DNA of 46,023 nucleotides from an uncultured Thermoplasmatales archaeon (GTDB lineage: Archaea > Thermoplasmatota > E2 > DHVEG-1), in the NCBI GenBank assembly GCA_964640555.1, contig CAZXHI010000041.1, positions 1 to 46,023 of the forward strand, read 5' to 3'. Position 1 is the first letter of the stretch. The number at the start of each line of letters is the position of its first letter. Position numbers and translations under genes: made by a program. The notes below the pieces were generated by a model. That model saw only the letters and a list, made by a program, of their open reading frames with translations, made no database searches and had not been told where the DNA came from. Below are positions 1,241-46,014 of this stretch, piece by piece.

Positions 1241-3922
1241 TCATAGATCGTATTCTATTTTGTATTCTCCAGGGTCTCCGTCAGTTATCTTGAATTTTTT
1301 CTCCCTACATAATGAAATCATAGGCACATTGTCTTTCAATACGACGCCATCAATTTTCTTTAGGCCTTTGTCTTTGGCAATGTTTATGGTGTGATCAACA
1401 AACTCTGAGCCTAGTCCACGTCGATGCCATTCATCGCTTACTACCATGGCAAATTCTGCCTCGTCGTTTCTCCCAGGAGTTAGAATAATTCTTGTTACGC
1501 CTAGAAATCGTCGTTTGCCATTTTCTTCTATTTCAGCTACGATTCCAATTTCTCTGTCGTAATCAATGTTACAATATCGCGTTCGCATTTCATGCGGTGT
1601 ATCTTTTATAATTCTAAAAAACCGATATCTTACTGTCTCTTCGGAAAAAGTTTTGAACATGTCAAGCCACAGATATTCGTCCTCTGGTTTTATCGGTCTG
1701 AGCAATACCTTGCTCCCATCTTTAAGTTTTACTGTTTTTACATATTTATTTGGATAGGTGCTAATGATAAGATGTTGTGTTTTCTCAGGATGTTTGTCAA
1801 TAACAATTCGCGCATCAACCGCAATAATATCATCACCAGATGCTATCAACGGATTAATGTCAATTTCTTGTATCTCAGGGTGATCTACGATCAATTGTGA
1901 GAAATTGATCATGGTTTCTTCAATTTTCTGAATATTGGCTGGCGGAAGTCCTCTAAATCCTTGCAACAACTTATATGCTTTTGTCCGTTCGATTATTCGA
2001 TGTGCCAATACCTGATTTAACGGCGGGAAACCGATAGCCCTATCTTTTAATAATTCAGTAAACACACCACCCATACCAAATAGAATTATCGAACCGAAAA
2101 CCGGATCCTTTTTAGATCCAAGGATAAGTTCATAACCTTTGTTTTTGATCATTTTCTGGATGGTTACCCCCTTTATTTCTGCATCGGGAACATTTTCTTT
2201 GACCTGTTTCATCATGTTTTTAAAGGCTTTCTTGACTTCATTTTCACATTGTAAATCAAGGGCAACACCACCAACGTCGCTTTTGTGTGTTATCTGAGGA
2301 GAATGTATTTTCATCACTACAGGATAGCCAATTTTTTTAGCAGTTTGTACTGCTTTTACTTCAGATCCTGCAACAATGGGTTTCGTCGATTTAATTCCAT
2401 ACATCTCAATGAACTCCTTAGCTTCATCCTCGTTAAGCAGTGTTCTTCCTTCAATTAACGCATTGTTGAGTATGTTTTTGAGTTTCTCTTGATTGGCGGG
2501 TGAAGGTCTTATGTCAAGCTCTTCTGGTGTTTCATAGTGGATTTCAAGGTTTCTTGCATAATTGTAGAGATATGCATAGGCTTCTACTGCTTCCTCTGGT
2601 GTGGAATATGCAGGAACACCATTTCTGTTTAGAATTCGCCTGGCGTAAAGAACGCTTTCTTCACCTGGAAAAGAAACTAAGATTGGTTTAGTGGATTTTT
2701 TAGACAGGTCAATAATCCTATCAGCAAGTTTTTTTGGATTGGCCATGACCTGAGGAACACATATAATCAACAATCCATCGATGTTTGTGTCCTTAAGACA
2801 TACTTCAATTGCTTTTTGATACCGTTCTTCATCTCCATCTCCGATGATGTCAATGGGGTTTGCTTTACTCCAGTGAGCTGGTAAGAATTCATTCAGTTGT
2901 TTCATGGTTTCATCGGAGAGTTCGGCTACTTTACATCCTTTTTCGACTATGGAATCAGTAGCTAATACACCAGGTCCTCCAGCATTTGTGATAATTGCAA
3001 TGTTTGGTCCTGTTGGTCTGGGTTGTTTTGCAAGAATTGATGAACAATTAAATAAATCACTAATTTCTTTTACTCTTATTGCTCCCGCCCTTTTAAATGC
3101 TGCATCATATATGTAATCTTCGCCTGCCATTGCACCGGTGTGTGATGAAGCGGCTTTTGCTCCCTCCTTAAACCTTCCAGATTTAATTACAATAATGGGC
3201 TTTGATCTTGCAAAACTTCTGGATGCGCTCATAAACTTCCGTGCATTTGTAATTGATTCTACATATAGAACAATGCTACGGGTATGCATATCCATACCAA
3301 AATAATCGATAAGGTCTCCAAAATCGACATCGAGCATTGATCCAACTGAGATAAAAGAGCTGAATCCTACTTTTGCTGCAGCGGCCCAGTCTAATATTGC
3401 ACCACATATTGCTCCACTTTGAGAAAAAAGTGCTATGTTACCCTTCTCAGGTGCCGAACCAGCAAAAGTAGCGTTGAGATTCAAGTATGGGAGGATAAAA
3501 CCAACACAGTTGGGCCCTACGATTCTCAAACCATATTTATCTTTAATTTTCAGTAGTTTTTTTTCTAAAAGTCTTCCCTCTTCCCCTATTTCTTTAAATC
3601 CTGCTGAAACAATTAAAATTCCTTTGATGCCCCTTTTTCCACACCGCTCGACAACATCAATAACTACCTTTGCTGGCGTTGCAATAATAGCAAGATCTAC
3701 GACCTTTGGAATATCATCAACAGAAGCGTATGCTTGTACTCCCTGGATACTTTCCTTTTTTGGATTAACCGGAAAAACTATGCCATCATACCCAGAACCA
3801 ATGAGATTTCTAAAAATTCTATATCCTGCTGAGCCGACCTTATCACTTGCTCCAATAACCGCGATACTTTTCGGCTTAAAAACTTTATCAAGATTTTCGA
3901 TGCCCATACTTCTTTCCCCCAT
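1241..3922 (-). CDS. Pat-type protein: fused ADP-forming acetyl-CoA synthetase (alpha+beta) with a C-terminal GNAT acetyltransferase domain
   Basis: 893 aa. CoA-binding N-terminus KSIAVIGASDKVGSAGY, retained phosphohistidine motif ASSHTGAMAG, ATP-grasp segment GYPVVMKIHSPQITHKSDVGGV. The C-terminal ~190 aa are GNAT, with HRRGLGS (Q/R-x-x-G-x-G/A). Confidence 0.85.
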   Translation of the reverse strand: MGERSMGIENLDKVFKPKSIAVIGASDKVGSAGYRIFRNLIGSGYDGIVFPVNPKKESIQGVQAYASVDDIPKVVDLAIIATPAKVVIDVVERCGKRGIKGILIVSAGFKEIGEEGRLLEKKLLKIKDKYGLRIVGPNCVGFILPYLNLNATFAGSAPEKGNIALFSQSGAICGAILDWAAAAKVGFSSFISVGSMLDVDFGDLIDYFGMDMHTRSIVLYVESITNARKFMSASRSFARSKPIIVIKSGRFKEGAKAASSHTGAMAGEDYIYDAAFKRAGAIRVKEISDLFNCSSILAKQPRPTGPNIAIITNAGGPGVLATDSIVEKGCKVAELSDETMKQLNEFLPAHWSKANPIDIIGDGDEERYQKAIEVCLKDTNIDGLLIICVPQVMANPKKLADRIIDLSKKSTKPILVSFPGEESVLYARRILNRNGVPAYSTPEEAVEAYAYLYNYARNLEIHYETPEELDIRPSPANQEKLKNILNNALIEGRTLLNEDEAKEFIEMYGIKSTKPIVAGSEVKAVQTAKKIGYPVVMKIHSPQITHKSDVGGVALDLQCENEVKKAFKNMMKQVKENVPDAEIKGVTIQKMIKNKGYELILGSKKDPVFGSIILFGMGGVFTELLKDRAIGFPPLNQVLAHRIIERTKAYKLLQGFRGLPPANIQKIEETMINFSQLIVDHPEIQEIDINPLIASGDDIIAVDARIVIDKHPEKTQHLIISTYPNKYVKTVKLKDGSKVLLRPIKPEDEYLWLDMFKTFSEETVRYRFFRIIKDTPHEMRTRYCNIDYDREIGIVAEIEENGKRRFLGVTRIILTPGRNDEAEFAMVVSDEWHRRGLGSEFVDHTINIAKDKGLKKIDGVVLKDNVPMISLCREKKFKITDGDPGEYKIEYDL

Positions 3923-23387: not shown

Positions 23388-24248
23388 GTGGACAATGTGG
23401 ATATAAAAAATGGCATCATTCAACTTATAAAAAAGGCGGAAACAGAGTTACCAACTGATGTAATAAATGCTCTAGAGAAAGCGCGTGGGGTTGAGGAAGG
23501 GATTGCAAAAACTCAGATTGAGACCATACTGAAAAATATAGATCTTGCAAAGAAATCAGGGCGTCCGATGTGTCAGGATACGGGTATTCAGACTTTTTTT
23601 GTAGAAATTGGTATGGACTTTCAGCATATTAATAAACTTAAGGGTCTAATTCTAGACGCAGTGAAAATTGCCACTATGAAAATCCCATTGCGTCCTAATA
23701 CTGTTGATCCATTTAGTGGTGAGAATCATAAAGATAACACCGGAGATAATATTCCCTATATAACATGGGATTTTGTTGAGGGAAGTGATGTGTATATTAC
23801 AGCTTTACCTAAGGGTGGCGGTAGTGAAAACATGAGTAAACTTGGAATGCTAAAACCCGGCGTTGGCATAGAAGGTGTAAAAGATTTTGTTGTTAAGGAG
23901 ATGATAAAAGCCGGTGGTAATCCATGTCCGCCAACCATTGTAGGTGTGGGTATAGGGGGTGGTGCAGATCTAGCAATGAAACTAGGTAAAAAATCTCTCC
24001 TCAGACCGATTGGCAATCGCCACAAGGATAAAACCATTGCTGCAATAGAAGAAGAACTCATTAAACGAATAAACGACAGTGGTATTGGTCCTATGGGTCT
24101 CGGAGGAAAAACCACTGTTCTAGATGTTCATATTGAGAAGGCGCATAGACATCCAGCTAGCCTGCCTGTTGGGATTGCTGTGCAATGCTGGGCTGACCGA
24201 AGATCGGAAATGGTAATTCACTCTGATGGGAGTTGGGAGGTGAAATAA
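23388..24248 (+). CDS. Class I (Fe-S) fumarate hydratase, alpha subunit
   Basis: 286 aa. CQDTGI motif, two-subunit archaeal/Thermotoga type. GTG start with GGAGGT 8 nt upstream. Confidence 0.85.
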   Translation: MDNVDIKNGIIQLIKKAETELPTDVINALEKARGVEEGIAKTQIETILKNIDLAKKSGRPMCQDTGIQTFFVEIGMDFQHINKLKGLILDAVKIATMKIPLRPNTVDPFSGENHKDNTGDNIPYITWDFVEGSDVYITALPKGGGSENMSKLGMLKPGVGIEGVKDFVVKEMIKAGGNPCPPTIVGVGIGGGADLAMKLGKKSLLRPIGNRHKDKTIAAIEEELIKRINDSGIGPMGLGGKTTVLDVHIEKAHRHPASLPVGIAVQCWADRRSEMVIHSDGSWEVK

Positions 24249-34986: not shown

Positions 34987-35760
34987 ATGGGGATTGACGA
35001 TGTTGTTGTAACAAGAACTATATTTAATCGTTTTTCTAAAGAGTTTCAAGATTATTTCGATGTTGATGTTGCTATTGCTGGTGCTGGTCCCGCTGGCCTC
35101 ATTGCTGCACAGTATTTAGCAAAAGCAGGTAAGAAAACCGTTCTGTTTGAAAAAAAACTTTCAATTGGTGGTGGCATGTGGGGTGGTGGCATGACATTTC
35201 CAGTTATTGTTGTTCAGAAAGAATCTAAGCATCTACTTGAAGAAGCGAACATCAAGGTTGCTGATGAAGGTAAAGGATATTATAGTGCTGATTCTATAGA
35301 AGCAGTTACAAAACTTTGTTCATCTGCAATTGATGCAGGTGCTAGATTTTTTAATGCAATCTCTGTCGAAGATGTGCTACTAAACAAAAACAAAGAAGTA
35401 AATGGCTTTGTTATCAATTGGAGTGCAATAGAAGCTGCTGGCTTACATGTTGATCCACTTACAATTCGAGCTAAATATTGCATTGATGCTACTGGTCACC
35501 CTGCTGAAATCTGTAGAATCGTACGTAAGAAATGCGGCCCTTTAGACACGAAAAGTGGAGATCTTGAGAATGAAAGATCAATGTGTGCAGATATTGGTGA
35601 GCGGGCCGTTGTTGAAAATACAGGGGAAGTTTATCCAGGTCTTTTTGTAGCAGGTATGTGTGCAAATGCAGTATATGGCTCACAAAGAATGGGGCCAATA
35701 TTTGGTGGTATGCTTCTTTCAGGTAAAAAGGCGGCAGAACTTATATTGAAAAAGCTATAG
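34987..35760 (+). CDS. thi4: Thiazole synthase Thi4 (archaeal, His-type)
   Basis: DVAIAGAGPAGL, GGGMWGGGM and DATGHPAE (His where the yeast suicide enzyme has Cys). ATG 34987 preferred over 34927. Confidence 0.85.
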   Translation: MGIDDVVVTRTIFNRFSKEFQDYFDVDVAIAGAGPAGLIAAQYLAKAGKKTVLFEKKLSIGGGMWGGGMTFPVIVVQKESKHLLEEANIKVADEGKGYYSADSIEAVTKLCSSAIDAGARFFNAISVEDVLLNKNKEVNGFVINWSAIEAAGLHVDPLTIRAKYCIDATGHPAEICRIVRKKCGPLDTKSGDLENERSMCADIGERAVVENTGEVYPGLFVAGMCANAVYGSQRMGPIFGGMLLSGKKAAELILKKL

Positions 35761-35952: not shown

Positions 35953-37020
35953 TCACATAAAACATGTTTTAAAAATGGTTATCAATAACACAACAATCGG
36001 TACACAAACAATAGTTGTCCATGTAACAGAAAGAGCAGTAACCTTTTTATCAATTCCATATGGGACAAGAAACATATTAGTACTGGTTATCGGAAGAATT
36101 GAATTAATAATAATTACTGAAAACCATGCACTTGGTACTAGTTCAAATGCAAATAATGGAACAAATATAATGGTTGTTAGTATCGGAGTTAATAAAACGG
36201 TGAGGAAAAATATATTTCTGACCCATGGCCAATGATCCTGTGTTTTTTTATTGTTTTTAAGGCAAAACAGTTTCCTCATTTCATCTATTTTTAAATCATG
36301 AGGATGAATACCTGCACCAACATAATATAGAGCGGCAGGTATCGTAATTTGAGTAAAAAATTCAAAAATAGTACTTATGTCACCATACCCTTTTGAAGTA
36401 ATACCTGTTGTACCATGTAATATAACAGCTGTAAATGCAAAGGAGAGAAGATACCAAGGAAATATTTTCAGATACCATGGTAACGCATGAATTTTAGAAG
36501 TTTTACCTGAATTTTTAATATCTTTTTTATGCAGATATGAAAGAATATATGGAATAATTGCAAAAAGAAAGATGGCCCCAATAATCATATATATTAAAGC
36601 CTGCACCCGCCACTCATCTATTGTAAGCATTGCTCCCCCTACAAAAGCAGAGCTTCTACCTTGGTTTGTTAAAACAGTTTTAACAAAATGTCCTTTATCC
36701 TCTCCTTTTAGATTCATTTTTTTTGCTTTAAATATTGCAAAAAAGTATGCAAGAACGTACATGAAAAATAAGATTATAAAGCAGACAATAGTAAATATCA
36801 TCTCATTTTCACGAAAATCAACACCTAAAAGTATTCTAAAAAGTAAGAGTGGTACAAAAACATAAAGCAAAATCAGCCCTATTTTTTTCATTGCCTTATC
36901 TATCTTTTGTTCACCAATAAGTCGAGAAAGTACTAAGGTTACTATGAAACCTATAAGTATCCATGGAAGTGTCCAAAGACCTTTTATGTACGGTAAAATT
37001 GTATCTAATATTTCAATCAT
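35953..37020 (-). CDS. Polytopic membrane permease (weak AEC / membrane-transport-family resemblance)
   Basis: 355 aa with about 10 hydrophobic spans in two halves, separated by the hydrophilic loop HKKDIKNSGKTSK. 24 nt downstream of the paaK-like gene. Confidence 0.4.
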   Translation of the reverse strand: MIEILDTILPYIKGLWTLPWILIGFIVTLVLSRLIGEQKIDKAMKKIGLILLYVFVPLLLFRILLGVDFRENEMIFTIVCFIILFFMYVLAYFFAIFKAKKMNLKGEDKGHFVKTVLTNQGRSSAFVGGAMLTIDEWRVQALIYMIIGAIFLFAIIPYILSYLHKKDIKNSGKTSKIHALPWYLKIFPWYLLSFAFTAVILHGTTGITSKGYGDISTIFEFFTQITIPAALYYVGAGIHPHDLKIDEMRKLFCLKNNKKTQDHWPWVRNIFFLTVLLTPILTTIIFVPLFAFELVPSAWFSVIIINSILPITSTNMFLVPYGIDKKVTALSVTWTTIVCVPIVVLLITIFKTCFM

Positions 37021-42699: not shown

Positions 42700-42834
42700 G
42701 CCTTTTTCCTCACGACATCTTTTTTGTTGTTTTAGTTATAAAGGACTTGTTGTACAACTGTTATCAAAAAATTTCCCTCCGAATCCTTTAAATCCCTTTT
42801 GCATATTCACTGCTTCAACAGAAAGGTGATTATT

Positions 42835-43920
42835 ATGATAAAACGTGTTTACAATTTTTATGCAGGTCCAGCAACGTTGCCACTCCCAGTTCTGGAGAAG
42901 GCACAGAAAGATCTTTTGAATTTTGATGGCACGGGAATGTCTCTTATGGAGATTTCTCATAGGTCCAAGGAATATGCAAAAATGCACACGGGAGCCTCGA
43001 GCTTGGTTAGGGAACTCATGGGCATTCCTGATAACTACAAAATCATGTGGCTGCAGGGTGGTGCGTCATCTCAATTCTATATGGTTCCATTGAATCTCCA
43101 GGTGGGGAAAAAACCAATGGAGTATGTGAACACCGGTGTTTGGTCAAAGAAAGCCATCAAGGAAGGGAAGTTCTATGGTGACGTGAAGGTGGTTGCCAGT
43201 TCCGAGGATGAAACATTTTCCTATATTCCAAAGAACATAGAGTTTAGTGGCAATACGGCATTTGCCCATATTACGGGGAATAACACCATATACGGAACTG
43301 AATATCCTGAATGGCCAAAAGTGCCAAGTGGTGTTCCTCTGGTCTGTGATATGTCTTCCCATATAATGGATAAGGTCATTGATTCGAAGAAGTTTGGTGT
43401 CATTTATGCCGGTGCCCAAAAGAACATGGGGCCTGCAGGAGTTACTTTAGTAATAGTACGTGATGATCTTATGGAAAGGGTGCCTGAGAACACGCCAACC
43501 ATGCAGAAATGGAAGACTCATGCAGAAAAGGATTCTCTATTCAATACAGGTCCGTGTTGGGCAATTTATATGTGTAAGCTATCTCTTGAACATTTGAAGG
43601 GTCTTGGTGGCGTTTCTGCTATGGAGAAAATAAACAGAAAAAAGGCCAAAATACTCTATGATGTAATAGATAATTCTAATGGTTTTTACAAAGGGCATGC
43701 TAGGAAAGACTCTAGATCGCTGATGAATGTGACATTCAATCTGCCAACCCCTGAGCTGGAAACAAAGTGTGTTGCAGAGGGATTGGCAAGAAATCTCGTA
43801 GGTCTTAAAGGTCATAGGTCTATAGGTGGTATGAGGGCTTCTATCTACAACGCCATGCCTGTAGAGGGCGTACAGGCACTTGTCGAATTCATGAAGGAAT
43901 TCCAAGAGAATAATCAGTGA
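42835..43920 (+). CDS. serC: Phosphoserine aminotransferase
   Basis: YNFYAGPATLP, SHRSKE and GAQKNMGPAG (PLP lysine). ATG 42835 with AGGTGAT upstream. Confidence 0.9.
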   Translation: MIKRVYNFYAGPATLPLPVLEKAQKDLLNFDGTGMSLMEISHRSKEYAKMHTGASSLVRELMGIPDNYKIMWLQGGASSQFYMVPLNLQVGKKPMEYVNTGVWSKKAIKEGKFYGDVKVVASSEDETFSYIPKNIEFSGNTAFAHITGNNTIYGTEYPEWPKVPSGVPLVCDMSSHIMDKVIDSKKFGVIYAGAQKNMGPAGVTLVIVRDDLMERVPENTPTMQKWKTHAEKDSLFNTGPCWAIYMCKLSLEHLKGLGGVSAMEKINRKKAKILYDVIDNSNGFYKGHARKDSRSLMNVTFNLPTPELETKCVAEGLARNLVGLKGHRSIGGMRASIYNAMPVEGVQALVEFMKEFQENNQ

Positions 43921-44836: not shown

Positions 44837-45549
44837 TTAAAATTCGTCTAATTTTTTGATTTTGCTTTCCTTCAATAAATTTTGTGCTGTTTTCCAAGAA
44901 TGTCTAGTATGAGGTGGTAGCTTTCCAAACGTTTTTACCCATTTTCTGAGAAACTTCTGCGTAACAGGATCTGCAGGATAGCCGCTACCAAGGGGTATAT
45001 CCAGCTTCTTTTCCAATTCCTGTGCTATCATCTGAACTTCTTCGTCTCTACTAGTTTTCGCTAAAATAGAAGCAGCTCCAACTATGGGATAGATATCATC
45101 TGCCTTGTGCTTAGATATGATATCTGGTTTGAATGAGAGTCTAGATAGAATATTCTTACCAAATCGTTCATTATTTACATCAGCAGCATCGACGTAGCAA
45201 ATATCTGGTTTTAGTTTTTCTATAATCCTGTTAAAAGCATTCACTTCTATTTCATTTAGTGTCATAACTTTCCGCATATGGTCAATATCTGATGCAGAAA
45301 TGAGACTTATCTCATAGTTTACTGCAGATTCTTTTATTTTTTTAGATAGTATTTCTCTTCTTTTAGGTGTAATTTTTTTTGAATCGCGCACATTGTTTTC
45401 TATTAATTCCAAATCATTTTCAAAGGTAACTCCAGCGATTACAAGTGGGCCGATGACTGGTCCTTTAGGCAAACAGAACCATAAAAAATATAATTTTCAT
45501 GTTCCTATTTTCTACCCGCCTCATCGACCCCACAGATTGACCTTTTCAC
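44837..45549 (-). CDS. rnhB: RNase HII, interrupted: exon 1 at 45549-45512, 47-nt insert at 45511-45465, exon 2 at 45464-44837
   Basis: Exon 2 carries GPVIGPLVIAGV, VRDSKKITPKRRE, YVDAADV, KHKADDIYPIVGAASILAK and GSGYPADP. The obligatory GVDEAGR segment lies upstream in another frame: GTG 45549 K R S I C G V D E A G R K TAG. It is preceded by GAGGTGAT (45563-45556). Joining 45512 to 45464 gives 666 nt, i.e. 221 codons plus the stop. Confidence 0.8.
45465..45511 (-). other. 47-nt intervening sequence in rnhB; candidate bulge-helix-bulge (BHB) intron
   Basis: It contains an in-frame TAG and shifts the frame. The flanking RNA can be drawn with two 3-nt bulges (AGA at 45513-45511, AAA at 45466-45464) separated by a 4-bp helix, plus long outer and inner helices (see findings). 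Confidence 0.6.
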
Positions 45550-45800
45550 AATACAATCACCTCTTTTGTAGTGGTAATAATTTTCCATAAACCATTTGAA
45601 TTTTTAGATGCCAGACATAATTTTTCTAATTCTCTAAGTCTGTTATATGCTGATTTCCAACATACGCCAATTTCTCTCGCAAGATCTCCTGTAGTTTTTC
45701 CTTCCTTTTTCAAAGATTTTAAATATTTATTTTTAATAGAAGAAATTATTATTTTATTTTGGTCTGTTTTAATCCAGTATGACTTACTTCTAAATTTCAT
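45546..45800 (-). CDS. Small winged-helix/HTH DNA-binding protein
   Basis: 84 aa. TTGDLAREIGVCWKSAYNRLRELEK is HTH-like. Its TGA stop overlaps the GTG start of rnhB exon 1 (GTGA). Confidence 0.55.
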   Translation of the reverse strand: MKFRSKSYWIKTDQNKIIISSIKNKYLKSLKKEGKTTGDLAREIGVCWKSAYNRLRELEKLCLASKNSNGLWKIITTTKEVIVL

Positions 45801-45906
45801 AATATCTCTACTTTAGTAAATATTTCATTCCCTTAAAGCATTTTAATAAAGTATGTCAAGATGGTAAAAAGATGTTACGGAAAAAACTGAAAAAATAGAT
45901 AGGCAA

Positions 45907-45941: not shown

Positions 45942-46014
45942 GCCGCCGTAGCTTAGCTGGTGGAGCGGCTGATTCGTAATCAGCAGGTCAGGGGTTCAAC
46001 TCCCTTCGGCGGCT
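45942..46014 (+). tRNA. tRNA-Thr (anticodon CGU), no intron, CCA not encoded
   Basis: Hand-folded cloverleaf. Acceptor GCCGCCG/CGGCGGC, D stem GCTT/GAGC, anticodon stem GCTGA/TCAGC with loop TTCGTAA, variable loop AGGTC, T stem AGGGG/CCCTT with loop TTCAACT, discriminator T. 73 nt. Confidence 0.9.

Follow-up and report, generated by a model that had tools for sequence, protein, structure and literature searches.

An intron in the cbf5 pre-mRNA of Crenarchaeota is said to have been described by Watanabe et al. in 2002, and Yoshinari et al. in 2006 reportedly linked the cbf5 intron to a hetero-oligomeric form of the tRNA-splicing endonuclease EndA. Here we analysed a stretch of 46,023 nucleotides from an uncultured Thermoplasmatales archaeon (GenBank assembly GCA_964640555.1, contig CAZXHI010000041.1), hereafter the window, in which rnhB, the gene for RNase HII, is interrupted inside its catalytic DEAGRG motif by a 47-nt element. 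From its sequence and its relatives we consider it highly probable that this element is an intron of the bulge-helix-bulge (BHB) type lying in the rnhB coding sequence. The locus as a whole is, in our judgement, probably a mobile cassette, made of an endonuclease gene and this mini-intron, between a tRNA-Thr gene and rnhB. An earlier reading of the window, made from its letters alone (the sequence-only reading), had proposed the intron; the finding has since grown larger, and what emerges from sequence comparison appears to be a widespread polymorphic intron family which, outside the Asgard archaea, is coupled to a LAGLIDADG gene.

The cbf5 intron of Crenarchaeota has been gained and lost among relatives (Yokobori et al. 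2009, PMC2738675). In 2020 a paper on the Haloferax splicing endonuclease named cbf5 as the sole additional BHB intron reported in archaeal mRNA and placed a BHB element in the 5' untranslated region (UTR) of the Haloferax volcanii HVO_1309 mRNA (PMC7714728), and the EndA papers of 2018 and 2025 cite the cbf5 work alone for introns in protein-coding genes (PMC5829648, PMC12397907). The sequence-only reading had held that an rnhB case would be new, which agrees with the literature found, where cbf5 is the only name given for coding sequence; no prior report of an rnhB BHB intron was found in the literature searched, most subscription journals being outside its coverage, so that this absence is no proof. 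Like the cbf5 intron, the rnhB element is short and of BHB type, is situated within an archaeal coding sequence and shows gain and loss among relatives. It differs in the gene, being placed inside a catalytic motif, in the lineages (Thermoplasmatota, DPANN and Asgard) and in its tie to a homing-endonuclease gene; moreover, splicing has been shown experimentally for cbf5, while for rnhB it is proposed from sequence comparison. The HVO_1309 element is likewise an mRNA substrate of a euryarchaeal splicing endonuclease, but it lies in a UTR, rebuilds no protein motif and has no associated endonuclease gene.

All positions are given in the numbering of the whole stretch and belong to the minus strand unless marked (+); the features are collected in Table 1. 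On the minus strand a Shine-Dalgarno-like element is followed by a GTG start codon and a frame which reads VKRSICGVDEAGRK and then meets a TAG. The called open reading frame (ORF), 44837..45472, begins only at TTG 45472 with MPKGPVIGPLV; its 211-amino-acid product is without the Asp-Glu of the DEAGRG motif and matches Pfam RNase_HII over model positions 8-198 only. Upon excision of the 47 nt from 45511 to 45465 a 666-nt ORF including the stop is obtained, and its 221-amino-acid protein begins VKRSICGVDEAGRGPVIGPLV, reads GVDEAGR/GPVIGPLV across the junction and matches RNase_HII over model positions 1-198 of 199 (E 1e-45). The sequence statements and coordinates of the sequence-only reading could all be reproduced, among them the 221-codon RNase HII with its DEAGRG motif, for which the Pfam match now starts at model position 1. 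The start of exon 1 overlaps the stop of an upstream ORF (GTGA) in the window, a layout that recurs in about 80 related loci, and the Shine-Dalgarno-like element is kept as AGGTGATTGTATTGTGA in split alleles, also in those without the endonuclease ORF.

In the predicted RNA a 4-bp central helix, whose pairs (45517-45514 with 45470-45467) are G-U, G-C, G-C and U-G, is flanked by two 3-nt bulges. The inner helix h' extends into a second 8-bp stem (45501-45494 with 45487-45480) with a loop at 45493-45488, and the exon-exon helix h ends in a distal helix of 10 bp (45530-45521 with 45456-45447), the exon-exon duplex having an energy of -19.7 kcal/mol. Every base pair drawn in the sequence-only reading is present in the sequence. 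The RNAfold check which it had proposed gave -34.8 kcal/mol for the sense RNA of 45440-45540 (z = -3.87), and 0 of 200 shuffles were as stable, while the antisense RNA reached -21 kcal/mol (z = -1.85), in agreement with a structure of the sense transcript only.

We then compared this locus with its relatives. Inserts were present at the identical point, after GGUAG, in seven other species-level Thermoplasmatota genomes (L010, L017, L018, L023, L024, L038 and L040), whose RNase HII proteins are 60-72% identical to that of the window. The sample was enlarged by the contexts of four distant members of the endonuclease family described below and by 80 loci from a metagenome scan with the endonuclease protein profile. 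Among 88 classifiable loci rnhB was split at DEAGR/G in 72, all from Thermoplasmatota and DPANN, and unsplit in 16; about 15 Asgard loci were tallied apart. Cuts were chosen by the protein only, as deletions which bring back an in-frame D-E-x-G-(R/K)-G and leave the frame open further on, and the BHB geometry was scored afterwards. The inserts measured 20-47 nt, with lengths modulo 3 of 0, 1 and 2 in 18, 22 and 32 loci respectively, and the unspliced reading ran into a stop in all 72. The frame-restoring cut fell 14 nt beyond the Asp codon's first base (D+14, AG/N) in 67 of the 72 loci, and in 66 the four bases before the 5' bulge paired completely with the four before the 3' bulge. At the protein-restoring cut the bulges were always 3 nt long, the cut followed the second bulge base and the intron hairpin came directly after the 5' bulge; the letters of the 3' bulge varied between loci (AAA, AGA, UAA, UUA, AUA and others) at constant length and position, and the hairpin loop was variable in length and sequence. 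In the five remaining loci, displaced by -1 nt (L086, L148) or +2 nt (L104, L146, L150), the BHB moves with the intron (CTGG/CCAG, GCAG/CTGC, GTAG/CTAC), which points to intron sliding or independent insertions.

Covariation was examined in an alignment of 59 sequences anchored by codon position alone, with an artificial AAAA linker in place of the variable loop. Paired cells amounted to 96.1%, against 24.6-49.3% when the partners were slid by 1-3 columns and 77.9% in shuffles, and double-sided changes numbered 107, against 5-23 when slid and 29 +/- 6 when shuffled (0 of 500 shuffles reached the observed value). Compensatory change was seen in 7 of 10 pairs, including both variable pairs of the central helix, where the outer pair occurs as AU, GU, GC, CG and UA and the inner as UG, CG, AU, GC and UA, and all five tested pairs of h'. 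The fold constrained to the BHB lay at a median of 0.1 kcal/mol above the minimum free energy (MFE), and the full BHB was itself the MFE structure in 29 of 72 loci. The exon-exon duplex had a median energy of -17.6 kcal/mol where rnhB is split; among unsplit alleles the median was -9.0 when the endonuclease gene is present and -9.7 when it is absent. The P-values of these contrasts (4e-8 and 1.5e-12) are indicative only because the sequences are phylogenetically related. From these comparisons the exon-exon helix appears to be selectively strengthened in split alleles. The proposal that a BHB intron lies here, at the positions cut by the tRNA-splicing endonuclease, is thus supported comparatively by 72 loci, their geometry, covariation and duplex strength, and the conservation of insert and compensatory changes, which the sequence-only reading had asked for in relatives, was found.

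A 30-nt insert at the same D+14 position was noticed in about 15 rnhB loci of Promethearchaeota and Hodarchaeota, the complete chromosomes CP070831 and CP070805 included. It contains an in-frame UAA, 3-nt bulges, a GU-rich central helix with 3-4 of 4 bases paired and an inner hairpin of up to 9 bp, and it is possibly related to the intron of Thermoplasmatota and DPANN. Four Asgard loci were unsplit (L041, L045, L048, L049), and in L060 an insert is visible by eye and could not be classified.

Some observations on the window weigh against splicing. The motif, which the sequence-only reading had called canonical, is so in its 3-4-3 core and not in its outer helix h: this is interrupted because two small bulges separate the single, conserved C45518-G45463 pair beside the 3' bulge from the distal helix of 10 bp, so that of the strict hBHBh' flanks h' is present with 8 bp and h in broken form. 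EndA of the alpha'2 type is described as limited to canonical BHB motifs (PMC5829648, PMC12397907), and the Thermoplasmatales are placed with the orders whose EndA has the alpha' unit (PMC5829648). In the MFE fold of the window the central helix is shifted and has 3 bp, compared with which the exact BHB is 1.0 kcal/mol less stable at -33.8 kcal/mol, and the protein database holds no protein derived from spliced complementary DNA (cDNA) for the window allele. Three full-length matches considered as such cDNA products (P0069, P0111 and P0114, each with 100% query cover) were rejected, as they are unsplit alleles with longer N-termini.

If the insertion were inert, this rnhB copy would be a pseudogene or would yield only the 211-amino-acid protein from TTG 45472, which is indeed what gene callers give. 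Such a protein would do without the Asp-Glu of DEAGRG, while all 57 split genes whose contig includes the stop have full length, at 208-308 codons counted from the Asp, and the ratio of nonsynonymous to synonymous substitution (dN/dS) between split alleles is 0.05-0.25; on these values the split genes appear to be under purifying selection. In all loci exon 1 is conserved together with its start and its ribosome-binding site and stays in frame as far as the cut, structure and covariation are kept over three superphyla, and a genome scan found no second rnhB locus in seven metagenome-assembled genomes (MAGs) with split alleles, within the limits of MAG completeness and scan sensitivity. An inert insertion is on this evidence very improbable. 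A gap of about 50 nt which begins near a stop codon and holds a hairpin also recalls the ribosomal bypassing of phage T4 gene 60, and 16 of 72 loci have identical triplets before the gap and at its end (AGA/AGA); in the other 56, the window among them (AGA vs AAA), the take-off and landing triplets differ, gap lengths spread over 20-47 nt, and neither the conserved pairing of exon 1 with the 3' end of the intron nor that of exon with exon is needed for bypassing, to which we would grant hardly any probability. An assembly or sequencing artefact might be suspected in a window from a metagenome-type assembly, but the identical insert recurs base for base in the independent assemblies L154 and L155, and homologous inserts recur in more than 70 contigs from many projects, complete Asgard chromosomes included, and the chance of an artefact is negligible. 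A self-splicing ribozyme was considered and dropped, inserts of 20-47 nt with BHB geometry being far too small for one. We thus retain the BHB intron. In the pre-mRNA the 4-bp central helix would arise from pairing of GGGU in exon 1 with GCCU at the intron's 3' end, flanked by the two bulges, the intron hairpin h' and the exon-exon helix h; EndA would cut after the second base of each bulge and RtcB would ligate the exons, as structure and comparison suggest, and the catalytic Asp-Glu of RNase HII would be encoded by the spliced mRNA only.

The surroundings of the intron are polymorphic among close relatives. The closest genome match is L001, a cold-seep Thermoplasmatota MAG with 95% protein identity, and the close homologues (94-96% identity) are mostly uninterrupted proteins of 218 amino acids which start MICGVDEAGRG, a minority being called at 211 amino acids as in the window. 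Window and L001 are 96% identical over the tRNA-Thr block (46023-45901) and 94.9% identical from 45442 onwards, and between these two blocks the window has 458 nt (45900-45443) against 102 nt in L001. Over the 45 coding nt around the junction the two differ at 14 positions with one amino-acid change, against 26 differences in the next 606 nt, the gene body of L001 being 3-4% diverged from that of the window; the same 45 nt show only 1-7 differences from split alleles whose bodies are 26-34% diverged. On nucleotide comparison, the exon flanks of the window appear to match distant split alleles and not its own relative L001. Within one population of 95-97% identity, L155 has an intact upstream gene and the intron, the window and L154 have a deleted gene and the intron, and L001 has neither, and these three states are the pattern expected of a homing element in invasion, decay and loss. 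In an rnhB tree, built with the first 16 residues excluded, the sequences follow phyla, and within Thermoplasmatota split and unsplit alleles are intermingled. The signature of a selfish element is seen in presence/absence polymorphism, decay by deletion or frameshift, and mosaic flanks. A decayed original exon 1 upstream of the endonuclease gene, suggested by a weak similarity between window and L001, was found in 0 of 71 loci and the idea was dropped. The tRNA-Thr(CGU) gene is conserved in divergent orientation some 100 nt upstream of rnhB across Thermoplasmatota, with the endonuclease gene invariably inserted between the two; this synteny was seen in the window, L001-L040, L074, L080, L134, L154 and L155. 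As the cassette lies between two conserved stretches, these could act as homology arms. A scan of 31 related loci for intron-bearing tRNAs returned the intron-less tRNA-Thr only and is therefore uninformative about the use of EndA.

The ORF which ends at the rnhB start is conserved in split loci. In the window it encodes 84 amino acids and gave no Pfam match, its identity coming from alignment to longer homologues. L155 carries an intact gene of 344 codons with 96-97% nucleotide identity, next to an rnhB whose protein is 95% identical to that of the window; relative to it the window lacks 775 nt, nothing but the start codons and the final winged-helix domain being left, and owing to this deletion both LAGLIDADG motifs are gone. 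Among the seven genomes with the insert, the gene is intact in L040 (359 amino acids, P0121), frameshifted in two pieces in L038 and L017, and truncated, as in the window, in L010. The motifs GLWLAEG and GFFAGEG, both acidic residues included, are invariant over 18 diverse homologues, and Pfam LAGLIDADG_3 (PF14528) was passed narrowly (23.1 vs 22.5 bits). An AlphaFold2 model of the protein (pLDDT 88.2) had as its best fold matches in the PDB E-DreI, bI3 maturase, many I-DmoI entries and I-Tsp061I, an intron-encoded archaeal enzyme according to its PDB entry, all with probability 1.0; a sequence search of the intact endonuclease against PDB chains found nothing. Intact members thus combine both motifs, their acidic residues and the alpha-beta-beta-alpha-beta-beta-alpha double-domain fold, and the model indicates that the upstream gene is a homologue of double-LAGLIDADG homing endonucleases with an I-DmoI-like fold. 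The gene is not contained in an intron or intein; its ORF lies 5' of exon 1, and the intron itself is without an ORF. The family counts 425 database members, almost all of about 342 amino acids, from Thermoplasmatota and DPANN (Nano-, Woese- and Pacearchaeota), and viral contigs scanned with the endonuclease profile held no relatives, hence there is no sign of a viral vector. In every locus with enough downstream DNA (about 80 contigs) rnhB starts 12-78 nt after the endonuclease gene, usually 15-24 nt. In the unbiased genome set anchored on rnhB, 4 of 7 split loci showed a trace of the gene, against 0 of 31 unsplit loci of Thermoplasmatota (Fisher P = 4.7e-4).

Whether the upstream protein serves homing is a separate matter, and on balance we lean towards such a role. 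The spliced intron could be real and the protein a domesticated partner, either a maturase-like RNA chaperone or a WhiA-like protein that binds DNA and regulates rnhB; vertical inheritance with repeated loss would then account for the patchy distribution. The evidence for this, which at the same time weighs against homing, includes two C-terminal winged-helix domains matched by Pfam, which recall the domesticated LAGLIDADG regulator WhiA, which appears at rank 43 of the fold search, as well as the match to bI3 maturase. The endonuclease gene stands beside an unsplit rnhB in 16 loci (17 with L137, read by eye), the Asgard introns persist with no LAGLIDADG gene near the split rnhB, and besides the rnhB tree following phyla, the upstream protein has diverged between phyla (46-50% identity) to a degree similar to rnhB. 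Co-conversion need not be the whole source of the flank similarity either, to which convergent selection on the RNA helix could have contributed. Against a domesticated partner stand the invariant acidic residues of both motifs, true homing endonucleases as the best structural matches, polymorphism with decay by deletion and frameshift inside near-identical populations, the mosaic junction, and the absence of the gene from 31 of 31 unsplit Thermoplasmatota loci, by which it is dispensable for rnhB. The loci with gene and unsplit rnhB could have lost the intron while the target site became immune, or could reflect a non-homing role of the protein; their site codons are often divergent, with a CGN Arg codon in 7 of 16, which is compatible with immunity by sequence change and is not proof of it. 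Taken together, domestication seems to us unlikely, though it keeps some weight.

Homing, which we favour, would follow the scheme of phage collaborative homing. An insert-free rnhB would be cut by the endonuclease at or near the DEAGRG codons, and repair would copy from the cassette-bearing allele, with the rnhB body and the conserved tRNA-Thr gene as homology arms in Thermoplasmatota. Thanks to the intron the insertion would do RNase HII no harm, and the target site would be interrupted by it. The cassette of the window would be in its decay phase, where an in-frame deletion has inactivated the endonuclease gene and the intron persists and still needs splicing. The full proposal, a composite selfish element made of a free-standing double-LAGLIDADG endonuclease and an ORF-less BHB mini-intron of 20-47 nt, with the catalytic-site codons of rnhB as its homing site in Thermoplasmatota and DPANN, is one we hold by a slight preference.

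Table 1. Features of the split rnhB locus in the window, followed by groups of related loci on other contigs
Feature	Position	Strand	Remarks
Shine-Dalgarno-like GAGGTGAT for rnhB exon 1	45556..45563	-	Inside the 3' end of the endonuclease ORF
rnhB exon 1	45512..45549	-	GTG start at 45549; VKRSICGVDEAG + AG (first two bases of the Arg codon); carries the catalytic Asp-Glu of DEAGRG
Putative 47-nt BHB intron	45465..45511	-	In-frame TAG 45507-45505; removal restores GVDEAGRGPV and the frame
rnhB exon 2	44837..45464	-	Last base of the Arg codon to the stop; dN/dS vs other split alleles 0.08-0.10
Predicted exon junction	45512/45464	-	...GCGGGUAG/AGGACCAG...
Predicted spliced-junction sequence			GTCGATGAGGCGGGTAGAGGACCAGTCATCGGCCC
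Central helix H, 5' strand GGGU	45514..45517	-	In exon 1; pairs with 45470-45467
Central helix H, 3' strand GCCU	45467..45470	-	In the intron
5' bulge AG/A	45511..45513	-	3 nt; predicted cleavage between 45512 and 45511
3' bulge AA/A	45464..45466	-	3 nt; predicted cleavage between 45465 and 45464
Inner helix h' and terminal hairpin	45471..45510	-	45510-45503 with 45478-45471 (8 bp)
Outer exon-exon helix h, 5' strand	45518..45530	-	C45518, G45519, G45520, 45521-45530
Outer exon-exon helix h, 3' strand	45447..45463	-	G45463, C45460, C45459, 45456-45447
84-amino-acid ORF	45546..45800	-	In-frame deletion remnant of a free-standing double-LAGLIDADG gene of ~344 amino acids, by alignment to L155
Cassette	45443..45900	-	No counterpart in 95%-identical insert-free L001; upstream leader, endonuclease remnant, exon 1, intron and first 22 nt of exon 2
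tRNA-Thr(CGU)	45942..46014	+	Outside the element; conserved left neighbour of rnhB in Thermoplasmatota
Asgard loci with insert	about 3020-3060 in each		L042, L047, L050-L058, L061, L062, L066
Loci with endonuclease gene and unsplit rnhB			L072/L073, L090, L099, L105, L108, L110, L113, L115, L117, L118, L125, L129, L135, L137, L138, L142, L151; mostly DPANN

The other window genes close to this locus are ordinary chromosomal ones, namely those for MetRS, TYW3, Thi4, a Toprim-domain protein, an aminotransferase and a response regulator. To our knowledge EndA and RtcB are universal in Archaea; neither was among the window genes examined. A 355-amino-acid ORF at 35953-37020 (-) lies among the housekeeping genes without a Pfam match. 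Over 46023 to 43939 the window and L154 share 99.9% identity; there the homology ends (L154 3034), and beyond this break L154 has a DDE_3 transposase gene while the window has a class-V aminotransferase gene (42799-43920). A generic scan of the whole window for BHB plus ORF fusion on both strands gave 33 weak candidates, mostly with inner helices of 4-5 bp and a few of 6-7 (for example 10613-10559, 23570-23619 and 35345-35379). The rnhB element had the longest inner helix of all, and otherwise this search was uninformative, its control, a reversed sequence without ORFs, being an unfair one. The candidates compared with the ORF list sit in intact long ORFs, and all 33 are probably due to chance.

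Split rnhB genes are mis-called by gene callers, as in L071 (1755-2644), L069 (3618-4232) and the window (44837-45472). For L071 (GCA_016188245) the source gene calls list no gene in the split-rnhB region, and elsewhere the split gene is called as a product of 204-211 amino acids without the catalytic Asp-Glu. Some DPANN RNase HII genes (L071, L116 and others) have about 284-308 codons against about 213 elsewhere, which implies a C-terminal extension.

I-DmoI has its host in a BHB intron of archaeal rRNA. Archaeal rRNA and tRNA introns with LAGLIDADG enzymes (I-DmoI, I-Tsp061I, I-PorI) share with the rnhB element the BHB motif, a monomeric double-LAGLIDADG enzyme and presence/absence polymorphism. 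Those introns themselves contain the endonuclease ORF and sit in an RNA gene, whereas the rnhB intron has 20-47 nt without an ORF in a protein-coding host, and its endonuclease gene is free-standing upstream and encodes two extra winged-helix domains. In phage collaborative homing, known from F-CphI and psbA of cyanophage S-PM2 (PMC6083498) and from mobE and I-TevIII of T4 (PMC2790892), a free-standing endonuclease gene adjoins a gene with an endonuclease-less intron, as in about 80 contigs here, and the intron again occupies a highly conserved coding site with co-converted flanks. There the intron is a self-splicing group I intron, the endonuclease is HNH or EndoVII-like and the hosts are phages, whereas here the intron would be protein-spliced (BHB), the endonuclease is of LAGLIDADG type and the hosts are cellular archaea, cleavage at the insertion site being proposed by analogy. 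The rnhB element is best classed as a previously unrecognised combination of known kinds, namely BHB introns, LAGLIDADG homing and collaborative homing.

For more than 20 years the cbf5 intron of Crenarchaeota has been the sole known endonuclease-spliced intron in an archaeal coding sequence, and the rnhB intron would be the second. If the proposed reading is true, mRNA splicing would extend to three more major lineages, Thermoplasmatota, DPANN and Asgard, the first outside the TACK archaea, and the proposed link of coding-sequence introns with hetero-oligomeric EndA would be broken. RNase HII, an enzyme of genome maintenance, would become dependent on EndA and RtcB if the intron is spliced. 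Truncated calls of split rnhB in many MAGs distort functional inventories. With its adjoining free-standing LAGLIDADG gene the rnhB intron suggests how BHB introns could enter protein genes, in a manner open to testing; if true, phage collaborative homing would have its counterpart in Archaea, and protein-spliced introns would have a concrete route into coding sequences in the lineages closest to eukaryotes. The Asgard copies bring this question within reach of cultured relatives of the eukaryotic ancestor.

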